A stretch of DNA of 64,000 nucleotides. Origin: Candidatus Micrarchaeota archaeon. GTDB taxonomy: Archaea; Micrarchaeota; Micrarchaeia; Norongarragalinales; Norongarragalinaceae. Positions 59,293-64,000 of the stretch are shown piece by piece (position 1 is the stretch's first letter; each line of letters opens with the position of its first letter). Under the pieces are notes generated by a model. That model made no database searches, was not told the DNA's origin, and worked only from the letters and a program-made list of their open reading frames with translations. Location of the stretch: the NCBI GenBank assembly GCA_016207165.1, contig JACQQD010000005.1, positions 1 through 64,000 on the forward strand, written 5' to 3'. The translations under genes and the position numbers were made by a program.

Positions 59293-61962
59293 TCAGTCAA
59301 CCGGGATAATTATCTGGGTTTCGCTGGACGGATCCCCTTGGCAGGCCATCTGGCCGTCTGGGCGCACGGTACAAACTTGCTGATCCGTTGATTCAAAAAG
59401 AAGGGGTCGTGAGACCTCTTGAATGACCTGGGTTTTCACTTCATCCAAGAGCAGATCGGCCAAAGGTACGGACCAACTGAACGTGGCAAGACCGGAGAGC
59501 AGGAAAGCGGCGTCATACAGTTGTTCTGCGGAATTTTGCAAGATTTCAGTTCCATTCGCACTTATCCAAGCCCGGTGGGTTCCCAAGCCGAACACGCCGA
59601 AAATTTCAGAGCTGACTTTGGCATCGGTGCCCGCCTCGTTGATCGTGCAGTGCGGAAAAACCGTCTGACCGGTAGTGTACGTCTCTTCCCGACAGTGCCA
59701 GATTCCTTCCGGCGACTTCCAGCATGCCTGCGGATAGTACACCTCATAACTTGTCGGGTACGGACAGAACCGCCACACGTAGGATTGTTCCTGCTTGTTT
59801 CCATCGGAATACTCAACATAGCGATAAGCCAAAATCGGCGTCACCGGACGCAGTAAATGGGTTACGGGTTCACCGTACTTGAAACGCCAGGCCGTGGTTC
59901 TGATGACATCCAAAGATTCTGGCAACGGGATGCCGGACGCACACGTCGTTCCCAAATCGGCCTGGCAACTCGTTGGAATGTCCGGAATCACGGACACGGG
60001 TTGAAACGTCATCCCGATTCTCGGCGTTTCCAGCTTCGCCAAAAAGTCGGCGGTTTGAGAAACCGGCATGAGTTCGCTGCAATTCTGGCCCATGCATATT
60101 TGGCAGACTTCATGCACGCACAGGAAATTGAAACGGTCGCTGGAAGTTTCTACGGGCAAAAACAACTTCGAGTCAACAGGAACCGGAGTCGGAGACGCCG
60201 TCGGCGTGGGTGAAGGGGAGGAAGAGGCGGTAGAGGCTCCGACAAAAAGGCCGCTTGCGTAATGGCTGACCAGTTGCGAGTTGGTCAAGCTGGAAAGGCC
60301 AAGGCCCTCCGGCGGCACGACGGCAAGCGGGACTCCGAAGTTGTTTCCAAGTTCGGCCAGAGGAAAGCTTCCATCTGCCACCAAATTGTATTCAAACGCG
60401 AGCGAGTCCGGAAAGTCATACAGGTAAAACGCGGTGTTGGACGCGCCGCCCAAGGATTCAAGCCCAAACGAAGCGGGTTTTCCGGGTTCCAGCCACGACG
60501 CAGGCACCGTCACCCACACTACGCCCTCGCTGTAAACGTTTGAATCCCACCACTTGTTTTGGAGGTACACGCGGCTTTCGTCGCCTTGAACCAAATTGGA
60601 GGAAATGGCGGGAAAACCTTCCAGAAGCGTGTGGCCGTTGAGCGTCAACCGGAACGGCGCGGAGTAGCCCGCCGGAACGCCCACGCCGGCGTAAAAGGCG
60701 AACGTCACGGTCCCGTTCGTGAAGTCTGTTGGAACGGCCTGCGTTTCCCAGAAAAACTTTTGTTGCGCGGCCAGCGGGTAAAACCAGTACGCGTGGCTCT
60801 CGCCTTGTGGGCCAGTCCGGTATCCTGAACCCCGGTTCACGTACCCCACGTTGGGCGTGTAGGTGGCGCGGGTGTATCCTTCCAATGCCTGAACCCGAAG
60901 GGGCACCGGTTCAAGAAAAACGGGGTCAGCCGGAGCGTTTTCAACAGCGGGCGCATACTTCAAGCGTACGGAGTAGGTCCTTCCAAGCCGGGTCAGGGCG
61001 GATCCGTCAAAGAAGAAATCGGTACTCAAGTCGGCCTGGTCAAAGGAAAGGAATCCGACGGATTGGCGCATTTTTAGTCCTACCCACGCCGTGCCGGAAA
61101 CGGAAACATTCGGTAGTGCGGCGTACTCCGTGTGCGGGACGCCGTTCACGGCGGCCGTTGAAGTGGCGTGCGCAAGCAAGGCGCCTGGTTTTCCGTCCTG
61201 GTCGGCCCAAACCGACACGTCCAGCACGTCCCCGTCCACGCCGCGGTCAAAGCCAACCAGCTCGACTTCCAGAAGTTGGACGGATGCGCCCAAATCCATT
61301 TTCTTGGCCAGCCAATAACCCGTTGGAATGATGTTGTCGGTGTAGATGTAAGAAGCGTTTTCGTTCTGCCAGGTTTCAGTAGCCATGACCGGCTTTGGCT
61401 TGGGCGTCGGGCTGAGCGTGGGCGACTCCCTGGGCAACGGCGTAGCCGTCGGAGACGGCTCCGGAGGCGGCAACAAAAATGCGAATTCGTCGTACTGCAC
61501 GCGCACGCTGTACGTTCGGCCCAAGCGCGTCAAGGCATTGTTGCCTTCCCAGAAGAAATCGGTTCCAGAATCGATGGCATCAAACCAAAGAAAGCCGACG
61601 GACTGCTGCATGCGAACGCCGACCCACACCGGGCCGTTGGCCGGAGCTGAAACCGGAACGGATTCCCAGTGGGCCTGGCCAGTCACGGAAACGGCTTTCG
61701 AAGCAGAAGCCAGAAGCGTCCCGGGTTTTCCTTGATCGTCTGCCCATACAAAAACGGAAACGACGTCCCCATTCACGCCCCGGTCAAACCCGTAAAGCGA
61801 AATCTCGTTGAGCACCGCGGCCGAAGGAAAATCCACGTGTTTGACGAGCCAGTAACCCGTCGGGATGATGTTATCCGTGTAGGGACCCGACCCGTACTCG
61901 TTTTGCCATGTAGCGGCTCCCACAAAAACGAGCAGCACCAAGAAAAGAAAAAGCCACCGCAT
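59293..61962 (-). CDS. Secreted modular protein with duplicated N-terminal domain and Pro/Thr linkers
   Basis: Signal peptide; TWQNE..YTDNIIPTGYWL....LTRLGRTYSVR occurs twice; PSPTATP linkers; Cys-rich C-terminal part. Confidence 0.82.
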   Translation of the reverse strand: MRWLFLFLVLLVFVGAATWQNEYGSGPYTDNIIPTGYWLVKHVDFPSAAVLNEISLYGFDRGVNGDVVSVFVWADDQGKPGTLLASASKAVSVTGQAHWESVPVSAPANGPVWVGVRMQQSVGFLWFDAIDSGTDFFWEGNNALTRLGRTYSVRVQYDEFAFLLPPPEPSPTATPLPRESPTLSPTPKPKPVMATETWQNENASYIYTDNIIPTGYWLAKKMDLGASVQLLEVELVGFDRGVDGDVLDVSVWADQDGKPGALLAHATSTAAVNGVPHTEYAALPNVSVSGTAWVGLKMRQSVGFLSFDQADLSTDFFFDGSALTRLGRTYSVRLKYAPAVENAPADPVFLEPVPLRVQALEGYTRATYTPNVGYVNRGSGYRTGPQGESHAYWFYPLAAQQKFFWETQAVPTDFTNGTVTFAFYAGVGVPAGYSAPFRLTLNGHTLLEGFPAISSNLVQGDESRVYLQNKWWDSNVYSEGVVWVTVPASWLEPGKPASFGLESLGGASNTAFYLYDFPDSLAFEYNLVADGSFPLAELGNNFGVPLAVVPPEGLGLSSLTNSQLVSHYASGLFVGASTASSSPSPTPTASPTPVPVDSKLFLPVETSSDRFNFLCVHEVCQICMGQNCSELMPVSQTADFLAKLETPRIGMTFQPVSVIPDIPTSCQADLGTTCASGIPLPESLDVIRTTAWRFKYGEPVTHLLRPVTPILAYRYVEYSDGNKQEQSYVWRFCPYPTSYEVYYPQACWKSPEGIWHCREETYTTGQTVFPHCTINEAGTDAKVSSEIFGVFGLGTHRAWISANGTEILQNSAEQLYDAAFLLSGLATFSWSVPLADLLLDEVKTQVIQEVSRPLLFESTDQQVCTVRPDGQMACQGDPSSETQIIIPVD

Positions 61963-62057: not shown

Positions 62058-62699
62058 ATGACCAATATACGCAACGAGGTTTGGAAGCGCATTGACGCCG
62101 ACCCCTCCATTCAATTGGACTTGGAACGCGGCATCGTCAACGTGCGGGCCTTGGCTCGGCACTTCCAGGACACGGGCGTTCCGGGAAGCAAGGAGGCCGT
62201 CATCTCCGCCATCCGAAGATACCCCCGCACGTCCGCCAAGTCGTGGTATGAAACGGCTCGAAGCATCGTCGCCCAGTCCCACGTCTCCACGAAAAGCCAC
62301 ATCGTCCTCATCGAATTAAGCAAAGGCGGGGAAGTGCAAGACATCCTGGCGGAGCTGTTTGACCTCGTGCGCTACGAAAAGGGGGAGACGCTGCGCATCG
62401 TCCAAGGCGAGGAATCCATTCGGTTGCTGGTGGATGAAAAGAACCGCGAAAAGATGCTGGAAAAAATACCGGAAAAAAGCGTGCTGAACGTCTACAGGGA
62501 CTTAGCGGAAATCAACGTGCATTTGCATCCCCAAGGGGCCAAAACCCCGGGCATCGTGTACGTGATCAGCGGCGAGTTGGCGCGCCACCACATCAACATG
62601 TATGAAATGCTGGGCGGGGCACCGGAAATCCTGATTTTCGTCGAGGAAAAAAAGTTGATGGCGGCGTACAACGCCTTGTTCGAGTTGTGCCACCAATAA
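62058..62699 (+). CDS. HTH + ACT-domain regulator-like protein
   Basis: GIVNVRALAR..AVISAIRRY N-terminus; TPGIVY...LA..INM ACT-like C-terminus. Confidence 0.8.
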   Translation: MTNIRNEVWKRIDADPSIQLDLERGIVNVRALARHFQDTGVPGSKEAVISAIRRYPRTSAKSWYETARSIVAQSHVSTKSHIVLIELSKGGEVQDILAELFDLVRYEKGETLRIVQGEESIRLLVDEKNREKMLEKIPEKSVLNVYRDLAEINVHLHPQGAKTPGIVYVISGELARHHINMYEMLGGAPEILIFVEEKKLMAAYNALFELCHQ

Positions 62700-62701
62700 A
62701 T

Positions 62702-64000
62702 CTAAATGATTTTTTCGCCGGAGTCCTTCTTGACCAAATGAATGACGTTCACGGGGCAGGACTGGGCGGCTTCCATGTTCGTGTCGAAATCTTGGTCCTG
62801 GATGTCCAACTCTTCCGTTTCGTCATCCATCTTCTTTCCGCCGACGACATCGCTTTTCCCGTCGTCATTCATCGTCCAGAAATCCGGGGAAACGCCCGCG
62901 CATGCCGCGCAGTTGTGCACGATGCCGGCCGAGGTGCAGTAATCCTCGATTCCAGCGACTTCCAGGTTGTAGACGACTCCGGAATAGGGCGTTTCAATGA
63001 CGTCCATTATAGGAAGCAAAAGCCGCGATTCGGTTTGAATCGAGTTAATTTTTAGTGCGGAAGCGGTTTTAGCGGTTTGGCCGTTGACCAACGCCTCCAG
63101 GTGGGCTACGTACGGATTGCATACTTTTGGTTTGAACGAAGGCCTGTGGCCCGGGCGCGGTTTGGATTGCTCCATGGAGCTGACGATGTCCTGACGGAGC
63201 AAAAGCAATTTCATTTGTTCGGCAAGCCGGCGGGAAATGGTGCTGTATTGCGCACGGTTAGAACCAATCCAGCCGTCCCCACGCCAAAGACCCTTAATCA
63301 AGTCCCTTTGAACCCATGGCTCCGCCAACATCATTTCAGCAGGAACGTGCTTGTTTTGCGCTCCATGACCAAACCATTCAACAAAGGCTTTGGCAATCAA
63401 CGAAGAGTTTGCCAAGACAGTAATGGTGTTCTTTCGGGGTATTCGCCGAATCGTTGCCTTCAATCCAAACACGTGGTCCAAGAGTTGCGCCGTATCCTGG
63501 GCCAATTCCATTTCCTTGCTCCCAAAAGTGAAAAGAATCTGCCGACAATACACGGTTTCCGGTTTTCCAATGGTATTTCCTTCCGACACGTAGTAACCCG
63601 CCAACCGGAAGAATTCAGGCGTAAACGCTACCGTTTTCTGTTTCAACCCGTTTCTGGAGGCGGTTGAAAACGTCAAGAAGTTCACGGACGCCGACCTAAC
63701 GGGCTTGGGATAAGTCACGTAATCGAGTTTCTTGAGGTTGCCTGCCTCCGTCCACTCAAATTCAAACGGCGCCCGGTTATGCTCGTATTTGGACTTCCGG
63801 CGGACAACGAGCACTTTGTGTTCTTCGGTGATGTGAATGGAACCCATGGAACGGATTTTCAGTTCAAAAATGCGGCCCACGTGTTTGTGGGCCATGACGC
63901 CGGTGACAGCTTGATACGATCCGTTCGAGGTAAGCACCAAATCTCCTACCTTGATTTCCGAAATGGGTTTGGCGCCATATGGACCAACGATTAGCGTATC
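62702..64000 (-). CDS. Ferredoxin (single-cluster, Fer4_13/15-like) precursor containing an intein; 5' end outside the window
   Basis: Frame is open to base 64000; C-extein CAACAGVSPDFWTMNDDGKS...AAQSCPVNVIH (62911-62702). Confidence 0.85.
   Translation of the reverse strand, partial: DTLIVGPYGAKPISEIKVGDLVLTSNGSYQAVTGVMAHKHVGRIFELKIRSMGSIHITEEHKVLVVRRKSKYEHNRAPFEFEWTEAGNLKKLDYVTYPKPVRSASVNFLTFSTASRNGLKQKTVAFTPEFFRLAGYYVSEGNTIGKPETVYCRQILFTFGSKEMELAQDTAQLLDHVFGLKATIRRIPRKNTITVLANSSLIAKAFVEWFGHGAQNKHVPAEMMLAEPWVQRDLIKGLWRGDGWIGSNRAQYSTISRRLAEQMKLLLLRQDIVSSMEQSKPRPGHRPSFKPKVCNPYVAHLEALVNGQTAKTASALKINSIQTESRLLLPIMDVIETPYSGVVYNLEVAGIEDYCTSAGIVHNCAACAGVSPDFWTMNDDGKSDVVGGKKMDDETEELDIQDQDFDTNMEAAQSCPVNVIHLVKKDSGEKII
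62912..64000 (-). mobile_element. Intein with LAGLIDADG homing endonuclease (N-terminal residues just outside the window)
   Basis: Block A tail DTLIV...KPISEIKVGDLVLT; block B ITEEHKVL; LAGYYVSEG and IKGLWRGDG; blocks F/G VYNLEV...IVHN|C. Confidence 0.93.

Follow-up and report, generated by a model that had tools for sequence, protein, structure and literature searches.

We identified an intein inserted into a ferredoxin gene at the end of the window, i.e. the whole stretch of 64,000 nucleotides analysed here (contig JACQQD010000005.1, positions 1 to 64,000), which belongs to a Micrarchaeota (DPANN) genome recovered from groundwater (G000; ~1.27 Mb, 90% complete). The reading that we prefer, with a probability of roughly 85%, is that the element is a canonical and mainly selfish LAGLIDADG class-1 intein that interrupts the only stand-alone ferredoxin gene found in this genome and is kin to the inteins of the 2-oxoacid:ferredoxin oxidoreductase beta subunit (hereafter oxidoreductase-beta inteins). 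The precursor gene was the only Fer4_15 match in the genome and the sole other Fer4 match fell in a 562-aa frame, a count that a second stand-alone ferredoxin might escape at 90% completeness.

The precursor open reading frame lies on the minus strand and runs from window position 62702 to contig position 64060 (452 aa), as the contig continues beyond the window. The part inside the window (62702..64000, open at the window end) encodes 432 aa, and we recovered here the same frame that the first-pass annotation had described as at least 363 aa of a LAGLIDADG intein ending in IVHN, followed by a C-extein of 69 aa; this tail begins CAACAGVSPDFW and contains SCPVNVI. The adjacent contig sequence agreed with what had been forecast for it, namely a short N-extein ending in CxG and a Cys1 about 4 codons past position 64000: the N-extein (MPMGYKIQHDRPNCIG in the full translation) comprises 14–16 aa (14 aa when counted from the second ATG, at which the homologues start, and 16 aa when counted from the first) and ends in N-C-I-G, while the intein extends to Cys1 at contig position 64012, the fourth codon beyond base 64000. 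The complete intein of 367 aa is ~4.4 times as long as the spliced host (83–85 aa), which bears out the earlier statement that it is several times larger than its host. The start codon is in frame, 14 bases past the stop codon that closes the aminopeptidase gene upstream, and the whole frame is open under table 11, so no other genetic code is needed.

Features of the intein-bearing ferredoxin gene (window positions unless indicated otherwise)
Feature	Position	Strand	Evidence
Stop codon of the precursor ORF	62702..62704	-	
C-extein, 69 aa	62705..62911	-	Translation; Fer4_15 and Fer4_13; alignments to intein-free ferredoxins and P. furiosus ferredoxin
Cys+1 codon, splicing nucleophile and second cluster-ligand position (predicted)	62909..62911	-	Alignments
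Intein, 363 of its 367 aa lying inside the window	62912..64000	-	Translation; AlphaFold2 model; Foldseek
Intein blocks F and G, VYNLEVAGIEDYCTSAGIVHN, with terminal His-Asn	62912..62974	-	Allele alignments
LAGLIDADG homing-endonuclease domain (approximate limits)	63119..63700	-	Pfam; Foldseek; missing in mini-intein allele P0006
LAGLIDADG motif 2, LIKGLWRGDG, acidic residue Asp	63272..63301	-	Allele alignments
LAGLIDADG motif 1, LAGYYVSEG, acidic residue Glu	63578..63604	-	Allele alignments
Intein block B, ITEEH, TxxH motif (T62, H65)	63818..63832	-	Allele alignments
N-extein	Contig positions 64013-64060 (outside the window)	-	

By its residues, its junction and its modelled fold, the element is a canonical class-1 intein and is predicted to splice. 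[quoted passage not shown] Block F contains Asn and Asp residues at positions where many class-1 inteins carry Asp and His, and unusual splicing kinetics are possible given these residues. Pfam search of the ORF detected LAGLIDADG_3 (5.9e-17), Fer4_15 (1.5e-7, above the cut-off) and Fer4_13 (above the cut-off), together with Intein_splicing at 5.5e-7, under its gathering score (29.9 vs 35.8 bits). The AlphaFold2 model of the intein (pLDDT 89.1, pTM 0.81) has a predicted HINT fold, and its best Foldseek match was the TliVMA intein (7qsu, E 1.3e-21), followed by PI-SceI, PI-PkoII and PI-PfuI. The endonuclease part was matched by chains of I-DmoI (E about 4e-7, target-normalised TM 0.7–0.77). The solved inteins TliVMA (7qsu/7qss), PI-SceI, PI-PkoII (2cw7) and PI-PfuI (1dq3) share the two-domain layout of HINT fold plus LAGLIDADG endonuclease, but their identity to the ferredoxin intein is only 13–17%, PI-PkoII being the only PDB intein matched by sequence (4.9e-6), and their hosts are a V-ATPase subunit, a DNA polymerase and a ribonucleotide reductase.

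The insertion point lies between the Gly and the second Cys of C-I-G↓C-A-A-C ... C-P. Ligand cysteine 1 of the predicted [4Fe-4S] site is on the N-extein, at position Cys-3 relative to the intein, and the C-extein contributes the remaining three, with C+1 as ligand 2, C+4 as ligand 3 and the CP cysteine as ligand 4. The CxxCxxC...CP motif spans the splice junction, and it is contiguous in the intein-free alleles. The first-pass annotation had proposed a CxxCxxC...CP monocluster ferredoxin as host, with Cys+1 as a predicted cluster ligand and with a Cys-3/Cys1 geometry if the N-extein ended in C-x-x. All three proposals held: intein-free homologues, Pfam domains and the P. furiosus alignment agree on the host, Cys+1 aligns with the second ligand position of P. 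furiosus ferredoxin (C in chain 2z8q, D in 1siz), with the cluster-ligand numbering that we take to apply to that protein, and the junction reads N-C-I-G↓C. The intein-free allele P0059, in which Fer4_15 and Fer4_13 are both above their cut-offs, matched 2z8q (2.5e-8), 1rof (1.2e-5) and 1iqz (3.1e-5). It matched P. furiosus ferredoxin 2z8q over the full length, with C-I-G-(C/D)-A-I-C and C-P aligned; the single-cluster ferredoxins of Thermotoga maritima and Bacillus thermoproteolyticus were also among the closest known ferredoxins. The Micrarchaeota protein exceeds that of P. furiosus by ~17 aa, has an acidic insertion located between the motifs and carries Cys where wild-type P. furiosus ferredoxin has Asp. 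The host is, on these alignments, a single-cluster [4Fe-4S] ferredoxin of the P. furiosus type and a predicted cluster carrier.

The residues present are those expected for the standard reaction, in which Cys1 would form a thioester, Cys+1 would then accept the N-extein and the terminal Asn would cyclise. Before splicing, ligand 1 would be separated from ligands 2–4 on the two exteins; the ligated product of 83–85 aa would have the CxxCxxC...CP motif intact and should be able to take a [4Fe-4S] cluster. The element would be primarily selfish, sitting in the part of the gene that is conserved best, a part that would also provide the Cys nucleophile it requires. Its endonuclease would drive its spread or persistence. 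The element would have been reduced to a mini-intein in one lineage, and near-identical alleles in other lineages lack it.

Alleles and empty sites, for which a search had been suggested in the first-pass annotation, were both found. We recovered seven distinct ferredoxin-intein alleles (six full-length and one mini-intein), with the same insertion place in all seven. The mini-intein allele (P0006; 256 aa with a 173-aa intein, on 6 contigs) keeps Cys1, TxxH, HN and Cys+1, and the endonuclease stretch is missing. The intein-free alleles are 83 aa long, and 58 out of the 58 near-length proteins returned were ferredoxins without an intein domain. When 11 of these 58 were aligned with 3 intein-bearing alleles the gap closed exactly. 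Over the C-extein, intein-bearing and intein-free alleles share up to 96% (P0001 vs P0059) and 97% (P0004 vs P0120) identity. The DNA flanks of empty and occupied alleles also match codon for codon. With seven alleles sharing one insertion place and with exact empty sites, the insertion is not a matter of chance. An intein-free allele of a relative was found in the same groundwater runs: contigs of runs X1 and X4 join both exteins, with the 1101 intein bases absent, though their sides are short (44 bases with 4 mismatches and 25 bases with 1) and belong to a related organism of another strain. The intein is rare, as the ferredoxin was present in 73 out of 401 genomes of the phylum and only that of G000 (1 out of 73) lies in a long open frame; by clusters, 5 were intein-bearing vs 58 intein-free. 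An M17 aminopeptidase gene is located directly upstream in G000, L018, L023, L025 and L026. Of these five loci, two hold a full intein, one holds the mini-intein and two are empty, so that full, mini and empty alleles occupy the same locus.

The splicing and endonuclease parts of the intein both appear to be under strong purifying selection: in the comparison of L022 with L023, the exteins gave a dN/dS of 0.024, the splicing domain one of 0.049 and the endonuclease domain one of 0.054, values that rest on this one pair, as the window allele is saturated at synonymous sites against L022 and L023. The central domain is a predicted homing endonuclease of the two-motif, intein-borne LAGLIDADG type that may cleave the empty allele. 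Indirect support for such cleavage comes from its dN/dS of 0.054 in the one pair and from the presence/absence polymorphism of the intein.

The nearest relatives of the ferredoxin inteins, both by sequence (32–40% identity) and by tree, were the oxidoreductase-beta inteins, many of which come from Nitrososphaeria/Thaumarchaeota metagenomes. The ferredoxin inteins formed one clade (support 100), and a clade of 39 rows joined them to 33 oxidoreductase-beta inteins (FastTree 100, IQ-TREE SH-aLRT 99); within it they grouped with 4 of those 33, with a support of 88–89 that is under the 95 mark. Both groups share the C-x-G↓C junction, the use of the second Cys of CxxC as the +1 residue, the domain layout and the size; the CxxC pair at the intein site of the oxidoreductase beta subunit presumably binds the [4Fe-4S] cluster of that enzyme. 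The oxidoreductase-beta inteins differ in their host and in their downstream extein, which is CGD instead of the CAAC of ferredoxin, and the ferredoxin inteins are set off by a long stem branch of 1.34 changes per column and have a block-F Cys of their own, Cys359, at a position where the oxidoreductase-beta relatives have Val. The ferredoxin intein probably descends from the oxidoreductase-beta inteins, which occupy the analogous Fe-S ligand site W-C-P-G↓C-G-D, or has a recent ancestor in common with them. Such kinship would mean that an intein moved from one C-x-G↓C site to another, and the tree suggests that this switch took place between two short and similar target sites, with the qualification that the rows of the tree were picked by similarity to the query and that the rooting on the SufB inteins determines in which direction the switch is read. 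The wider clade also occupies ligand cysteines of IscU and IspG; since close relatives occupy Fe-S ligand cysteines in several further proteins, the ferredoxin gene is not the only example of the principle.

The SufB inteins of Mycobacterium tuberculosis and of archaea are likewise endonuclease-bearing class-1 inteins in the Fe-S machinery, but they form a separate clade (the outgroup) and reside in an assembly scaffold instead of a ferredoxin. Micrarchaeota relatives of G000 carry SufB inteins at E-G↓C-[ST]-[AS]-P. A title cited in the survey PMC4760082 describes the mycobacterial SufB intein as sensitive to oxidative and nitrosative stress, and the splicing chemistry of the SufB intein is treated in PMC8891592.

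As the gene is cut by the end of the window and the genome is assembled from a metagenome, an artefact might be considered, either an assembly chimera or part of a larger fusion protein reaching further upstream. We give this almost no weight. The contig runs on, and the complete ORF, its N-extein of 14–16 aa and the stop of the upstream gene just before the start codon rule out a larger fusion host; a chimera is ruled out by the same architecture on independent contigs from several sources and by a contig of 2837 bases from run X1 that spans the whole stretch with zero differences, although X1 may be the source of the assembly. Nor is it at all probable that the insertion is dead, i.e. that splicing was lost, the ferredoxin is a pseudogene and the cell manages without it. 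Some genomes do seem to lack this ferredoxin, since 14 of the 20 same-family genomes in the phylum sample had no match to it at E <= 1e-5 (6 out of 20 matched), and POR_N and PFO_beta_C, the domains searched for 2-oxoacid:ferredoxin oxidoreductase, were not found in the 90%-complete G000. Against a dead insertion stand the open frame of 452 codons, the catalytic residues intact in the seven alleles (even in the mini-intein) and the selection that strongly purifies exteins and intein in the pair L022 and L023.

Conditional splicing is a more serious alternative, though still an unlikely one. The junction would then act as a redox or metal switch, and the ferredoxin would be matured only under reducing or iron-replete conditions; the candidate blocks on the first or second splicing step would be a Cys-3/Cys1, Cys1/Cys+1 or Cys+1/Cys+4 disulfide or a bound metal. 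[quoted passage not shown] Five cysteines, Cys-3, Cys1, Cys359, Cys+1 and Cys+4, are all invariant in the 7 alleles and would meet at the splice site, and one of them (Cys359) is absent from the oxidoreductase-beta relatives. According to PMC10663303 and PMC3922620, the P. abyssi MoaA intein has a native Cys-3/Cys1 disulfide that acts as a redox trap, and the Cys-3/Cys1 spacing found here (C-I-G before Cys1) equals that of the engineered and native traps in these sources. The MoaA intein likewise combines a Cys-3 with a class-1 Cys1/Cys+1 pair and an oxygen-sensitive Fe-S host, and the spliced ferredoxin is also of an oxygen-sensitive protein type, the same rationale that PMC10663303 offers for MoaA; the ferredoxin host is, however, a predicted electron carrier of 83–85 aa and not an enzyme. 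On the other hand, Cys-3, Cys+1 and Cys+4 are predicted ferredoxin ligands that are kept in the intein-free alleles too, so no regulatory explanation is required for them, and the presence of Cys-3 in itself does not indicate that a redox trap was selected for. As most relatives have no intein, any regulation would be dispensable. A broader form of this proposal, in which a gated switch frees the only stand-alone ferredoxin and the intein belongs to a clade specialised on Fe-S ligand cysteines, seems equally doubtful to us. If true, ferredoxin would be freed only with a reducing cytoplasm or when the Fe-S supply permits, and the clade would hop between C-x-G↓C sites of oxidoreductase beta subunits, IscU, IspG and ferredoxins, in this case passing from an enzyme into the type of protein which that enzyme reduces.

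The canonical, mainly selfish intein that we favour sits outside the usual pattern of hosts, which according to the survey PMC4760082 concentrate in replication, repair and ATPase proteins: its host is a predicted minimal electron carrier, and its relatives are in other Fe-S proteins. The first-pass annotation knew of no ferredoxin described as an intein host, and our literature search, which covered the text of papers (the host lists in survey supplements may include ferredoxin or oxidoreductase-beta), also found no paper naming one, nor any on oxidoreductase-beta inteins. The switch of site bears on how inteins gain new hosts. Splicing, disulfide trapping and cofactor insertion would all involve the same cysteines, and the gene offers a compact test system, as maturation of the tiny host would show in its own colour and EPR signal after cluster insertion; the natural mini-intein and the empty alleles could serve to probe a possible coupling of splicing to redox state or to cluster assembly.

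No clear redox partner was detected among the neighbouring genes of the examined loci; downstream, G000 has an ACT-domain gene on the opposite strand, and other loci have a glutaredoxin or GAPDH gene. Finally, the deposited gene model of the precursor has 411 aa, with its start placed inside the intein, so automated annotation conceals this ferredoxin intein and probably others like it.

The minus-strand frame that reaches the window's end was open at its boundary, with 363 residues up to IVHN followed by a 69-residue tail that starts CAACAGVSPDFW and includes SCPVNVI. Pfam assigned LAGLIDADG_3 (5.9e-17) and Fer4_15 (1.5e-7) to this frame, both above their cut-offs, while Fer4_13 was short by 0.1 bit (24.4 vs 24.5) and the Intein_splicing match scored under the gathering threshold. 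The window covers bases 1–64,000 of contig C6 in the genome (G000; 1.27 Mb, 12 contigs, 90% complete), and since the contig extends further, the missing gene end could be read. An M17 aminopeptidase gene ends just upstream, and the complete ORF starts 14 bases past its stop codon; the N-extein was counted as 14–16 aa because homologues begin at the second Met. The first-pass annotation had predicted a short N-extein ending CxG and Cys1 about 4 codons past base 64000, exactly as the contig reads, and had noted an intein several times bigger than the visible host; the intein is about 4.4 times the length of the spliced ferredoxin.

The start of the deposited gene model appears to be an internal codon of the intein, near the 412-aa TTG frame 62702-63940. 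On that reading neither the N-extein nor block A of the intein is part of the model, and the automated annotation conceals both the host and the splice junction. At the place of the convergent neighbour, related loci had glutaredoxin or GAPDH genes. The 889-aa ORF had no Pfam family at E <= 0.001; its product is probably secreted or located at the cell surface.

Features of the ferredoxin gene, its surroundings and other loci (window positions unless a contig or locus is named)
Feature	Position	Strand	Length	Remarks
Intein-bearing ferredoxin ORF	62702-64000, continuing past the window	-	452 codons	full ORF translation
N-extein			14-16 aa	MPMGYKIQHDRPNCIG
Intein			367 aa	CLTPD to IVHN
C-extein			69 aa	
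Deposited gene model P0002	62702-63940	-	411 aa	91% of query covered
Convergent neighbour	62058-62699	+	213 aa	ACT_7 (7.8e-6), DUF7523 (1.4e-4), both slightly under cut-offs
ORF	59293-61962	-	889 aa	hydrophobic N-terminus, ~200-aa internal duplication, Pro/Thr/Ser-rich linkers
Intein in SMC-type ATPase (L002)	G000:C9:2997-4592		1723-aa open frame	endonuclease-bearing; directly past P-loop (GPNGSGK/C)
Intein in aRF1 release factor (L003)	G000:C12:5219-6742		930-aa frame	endonuclease-bearing; directly past GGQ motif
Weak intein C-terminal match	G000:C9:95094-95198		963-aa frame	fourth in the genome
Empty ferredoxin in one Micrarchaeota MAG	L019:3832-4695	-		two genes from an intein-free oxidoreductase beta, NrdR-like gene between

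Using the C-extein as query, all 58 near-length candidates were returned (74–105 aa); all were Fer4_15 proteins, none contained an intein domain, and the named members were Micrarchaeota ferredoxins. The search for longer proteins returned 6 of 12 candidates: five intein-bearing clusters and one intein-free 122-aa protein. Alignment of empty and intein-bearing proteins placed the insertion at the Gly/Cys boundary of N-C-I-G/C-A-A-C (a slash marks the insertion point throughout). Of the empty alleles the closest is P0059 (83 aa), which aligned end to end with P. furiosus ferredoxin (chain 2z8q, 2.5e-8), its C-I-G-C-A-A-C matching C-I-G-C-A-I-C of 2z8q and C-I-G-D-A-I-C of 1siz. Taking the P. 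furiosus ligands to be Cys11, Asp14, Cys17 and Cys56, Cys-3 is presumably ligand 1, Cys+1 ligand 2, Cys+4 ligand 3 and the Cys of the CP motif ligand 4. The proposal that the +1 nucleophile is itself a predicted cluster ligand thus held, given that Cys+1 aligns with the second ligand position (C in 2z8q, D in 1siz).

This ferredoxin is the only Fer4_15 match in G000, the sole other Fer4 match lying inside a 562-aa frame; thus the cell probably needs splicing to have free ferredoxin, as judged from an assembly of 90% completeness. A search of the same assembly for an oxidoreductase partner found none. The proximity of the two genes at L019 hints that ferredoxin and oxidoreductase beta cooperate in some members of the phylum. 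We also found a metagenome protein (P0054, 327 aa) in which a formyltransferase (PF00551) is fused to a C-terminal, intein-free ferredoxin of this type.

Cys1, the block B TxxH (ITEEH), the terminal His-Asn and Cys+1 were present and invariant in every allele found, and both LAGLIDADG motifs, including their Glu and Asp, were kept in all six full-length alleles. The AlphaFold2 model (43 alignment rows; mean pLDDT 89.1, pTM 0.81) had endonuclease-bearing inteins as its top Foldseek matches (TliVMA 7qsu, 1.3e-21, then PI-SceI, PI-PkoII and PI-PfuI), and its endonuclease part was matched by I-DmoI. The only solved relatives by sequence were PI-PkoII (4.9e-6) and P. furiosus ferredoxin. The intein is mechanistically ordinary. 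Following the established class-1 mechanism, Cys1 would make a thioester, Cys+1 would attack it and Asn367 would cyclise, giving a ligated product of 83–85 aa able to bind a [4Fe-4S] cluster via four cysteines that, before splicing, are divided one to three over 367 residues.

The suggested search for further alleles and empty sites showed the intein at full length in six distinct alleles (that of the window, P0003, P0004, P0005, P0117 and P0119; 72–88% pairwise intein identity), and also yielded intein-free alleles and one mini-intein allele (P0006; 256 aa, with a 173-aa intein) from which precisely the endonuclease domain is gone. The exteins formed two groups, each with intein-bearing and empty alleles (C-extein identity 96–97%), and intein identities tracked the same groups. 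In G000 and at L018, L023, L025 and L026 the immediate upstream neighbour is the M17 aminopeptidase gene, and the flanking DNA aligns codon for codon around the insertion: all allele states occupy one and the same locus. Synonymous sites were unsaturated only between L022 and L023, which gave dN/dS values of 0.024 (exteins), 0.049 (splicing domain) and 0.054 (endonuclease domain). They were saturated between these loci and the window allele, where amino-acid identity was similar in the exteins (0.74–0.77) and the intein (0.73–0.75).

Among 60 relatives, all C-extein matches fell inside open frames of 83–166 aa. The ferredoxin was present in 73 of 401 phylum genomes (76 places), and G000 alone had a 452-aa frame; the other frames were 71–166 aa, except one of 276 aa with an internal TAG. 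The stretch was also present in four groundwater runs of a single study, one of them possibly the source of the assembly. In runs X1 and X4 a contig connects the C-extein and N-extein sides; 10 bases are replaced by 10 unlike letters and a net 1101 bases, the intein size, are skipped. This contig and the intein-bearing one had comparable depths (25.8 and 22.3, respectively, in X1). Since its matching sides span only 44 and 25 bases (4 and 1 mismatches) and the remainder is unlike, the joining contig belongs to a related organism from the same water and represents its empty allele. Taken together, these results give the usual picture of an intein persisting, decaying and being lost or regained between closely related lineages.

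In the first search, 37 of 57 matches were intein-bearing 2-oxoacid:ferredoxin oxidoreductase beta subunits (~33–38% identity) and three were NifU/IscU-like proteins. Junctions read from these matches and from the relatives' genomes were W-C-P-G/C-G-D (oxidoreductase beta), G-N-P-x/C-G-D (IscU), V-M-G/C-x-V-N-G (IspG), C-x-x/C-D-G (thioredoxin-reductase-like), E-G/C-[ST]-[AS]-P (SufB) and C-x-x-x-C-x-G/C (radical SAM). An intein-only HMMER search of 1.84 billion representatives gave 6369 matches at E <= 1e-3 (72 at <= 1e-30), and 49 of the 150 matches listed aligned in one stretch across the full 367 residues. Pfam assigned their hosts to NifU_N (7), methyltransferases (6), UDP-glucose dehydrogenases (5), glycosyltransferases (4), oxidoreductase beta (3), GcpE (IspG; 2) and, with one each, two-cluster Fer4 ferredoxin, Pyr_redox_2, HGD-D, ribonucleotide reductase, phage portal and MptE-like; 16 were unrecognised. 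Iron-sulfur or redox-cysteine hosts made up 15 of the 33 recognised and were the best-scoring among the matches listed. Two of the 49, both metagenome proteins, are further ferredoxin-type hosts with other sites: P0185, a two-cluster ferredoxin extended at its N-terminus by a His-rich stretch, has its intein ahead of the first ligand Cys (VDFDE/C...HN/CIADGIC), and P0149, for which Pfam named no family at the threshold used, has two CxxCxxCxxxCP motifs and an intein ahead of the second motif's third Cys (C-x-x-C-x-x/C-x-x-x-C-P).

We built trees with FastTree (180 inteins, after removing 3 of 183 for bad boundaries) and IQ-TREE (70 rows, LG+C20+F+G4 by PMSF, SH-aLRT, SufB-intein root), with rows picked by similarity to the query. 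The six ferredoxin inteins formed one clade in both (support 100). A 39-row clade (100 and 99) united them with 33 oxidoreductase-beta inteins; here they grouped with 4 of the 33 (88 and 89), and the remaining 29 formed a clade by themselves (96). A 60-row clade (96 and 100) additionally took in IscU, IspG and four other inteins. We read this as a switch from oxidoreductase C-P-G/C to ferredoxin C-I-G/C followed by long separate evolution (stem branch 1.34), a direction that we infer and that depends on the SufB root and on support below 95.

The arrangement of cysteines raises the question of redox control. In the P. abyssi MoaA and engineered Ssp DnaE inteins, a Cys-3/Cys1 disulfide is described as stopping the first step until reduced (PMC3922620, PMC10663303); Cys1/Cys+1 (Pab PolII) and intein-internal (Mma PolII) disulfides are reported too (PMC3922620). 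The MoaA-like geometry, anticipated in case the N-extein ended C-x-x, is indeed present (Cys-3, two residues, Cys1). The opposite junction has a further CxxC pair, made up of Cys+1 and Cys+4, and all the ferredoxin inteins share a Cys in block F (intein residue 359) that is missing in their oxidoreductase relatives. These features make redox or metal sensitivity of splicing in vitro plausible. A physiological switch at the splice site would draw on the same spacing and on Cys359, but three of the five junction cysteines are ferredoxin ligands and conserved simply for that reason, and most relatives lack the intein; we consider such a switch unlikely.

The literature search turned up no publication on an intein in ferredoxin, IscU, IspG or oxidoreductase beta, in line with the earlier remark that ferredoxin is not known as a described host; supplementary tables or intein registries possibly list one, and the main text of two large intein surveys does not mention ferredoxin. 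New here are ferredoxin as a host, an intein so extreme in size relative to its host, insertion within the ligand motif and a connection to an intein clade on iron-sulfur ligand cysteines.

Related inteins were also found in relatives of the same order, at L007 (G025), L009 (G053), L008 and L010–L013 (G051, G057, G039, G005, G001), L016 (G045) and L014 (G050), with IscU (ahead of the CGD Cys), SufB (E-G/C), a radical-SAM enzyme (within CxxxCxG/C) and the DNA polymerase D small subunit as hosts; L008 is a single SufB with two inteins. In G000 itself, the aRF1 intein includes a helix-turn-helix domain.
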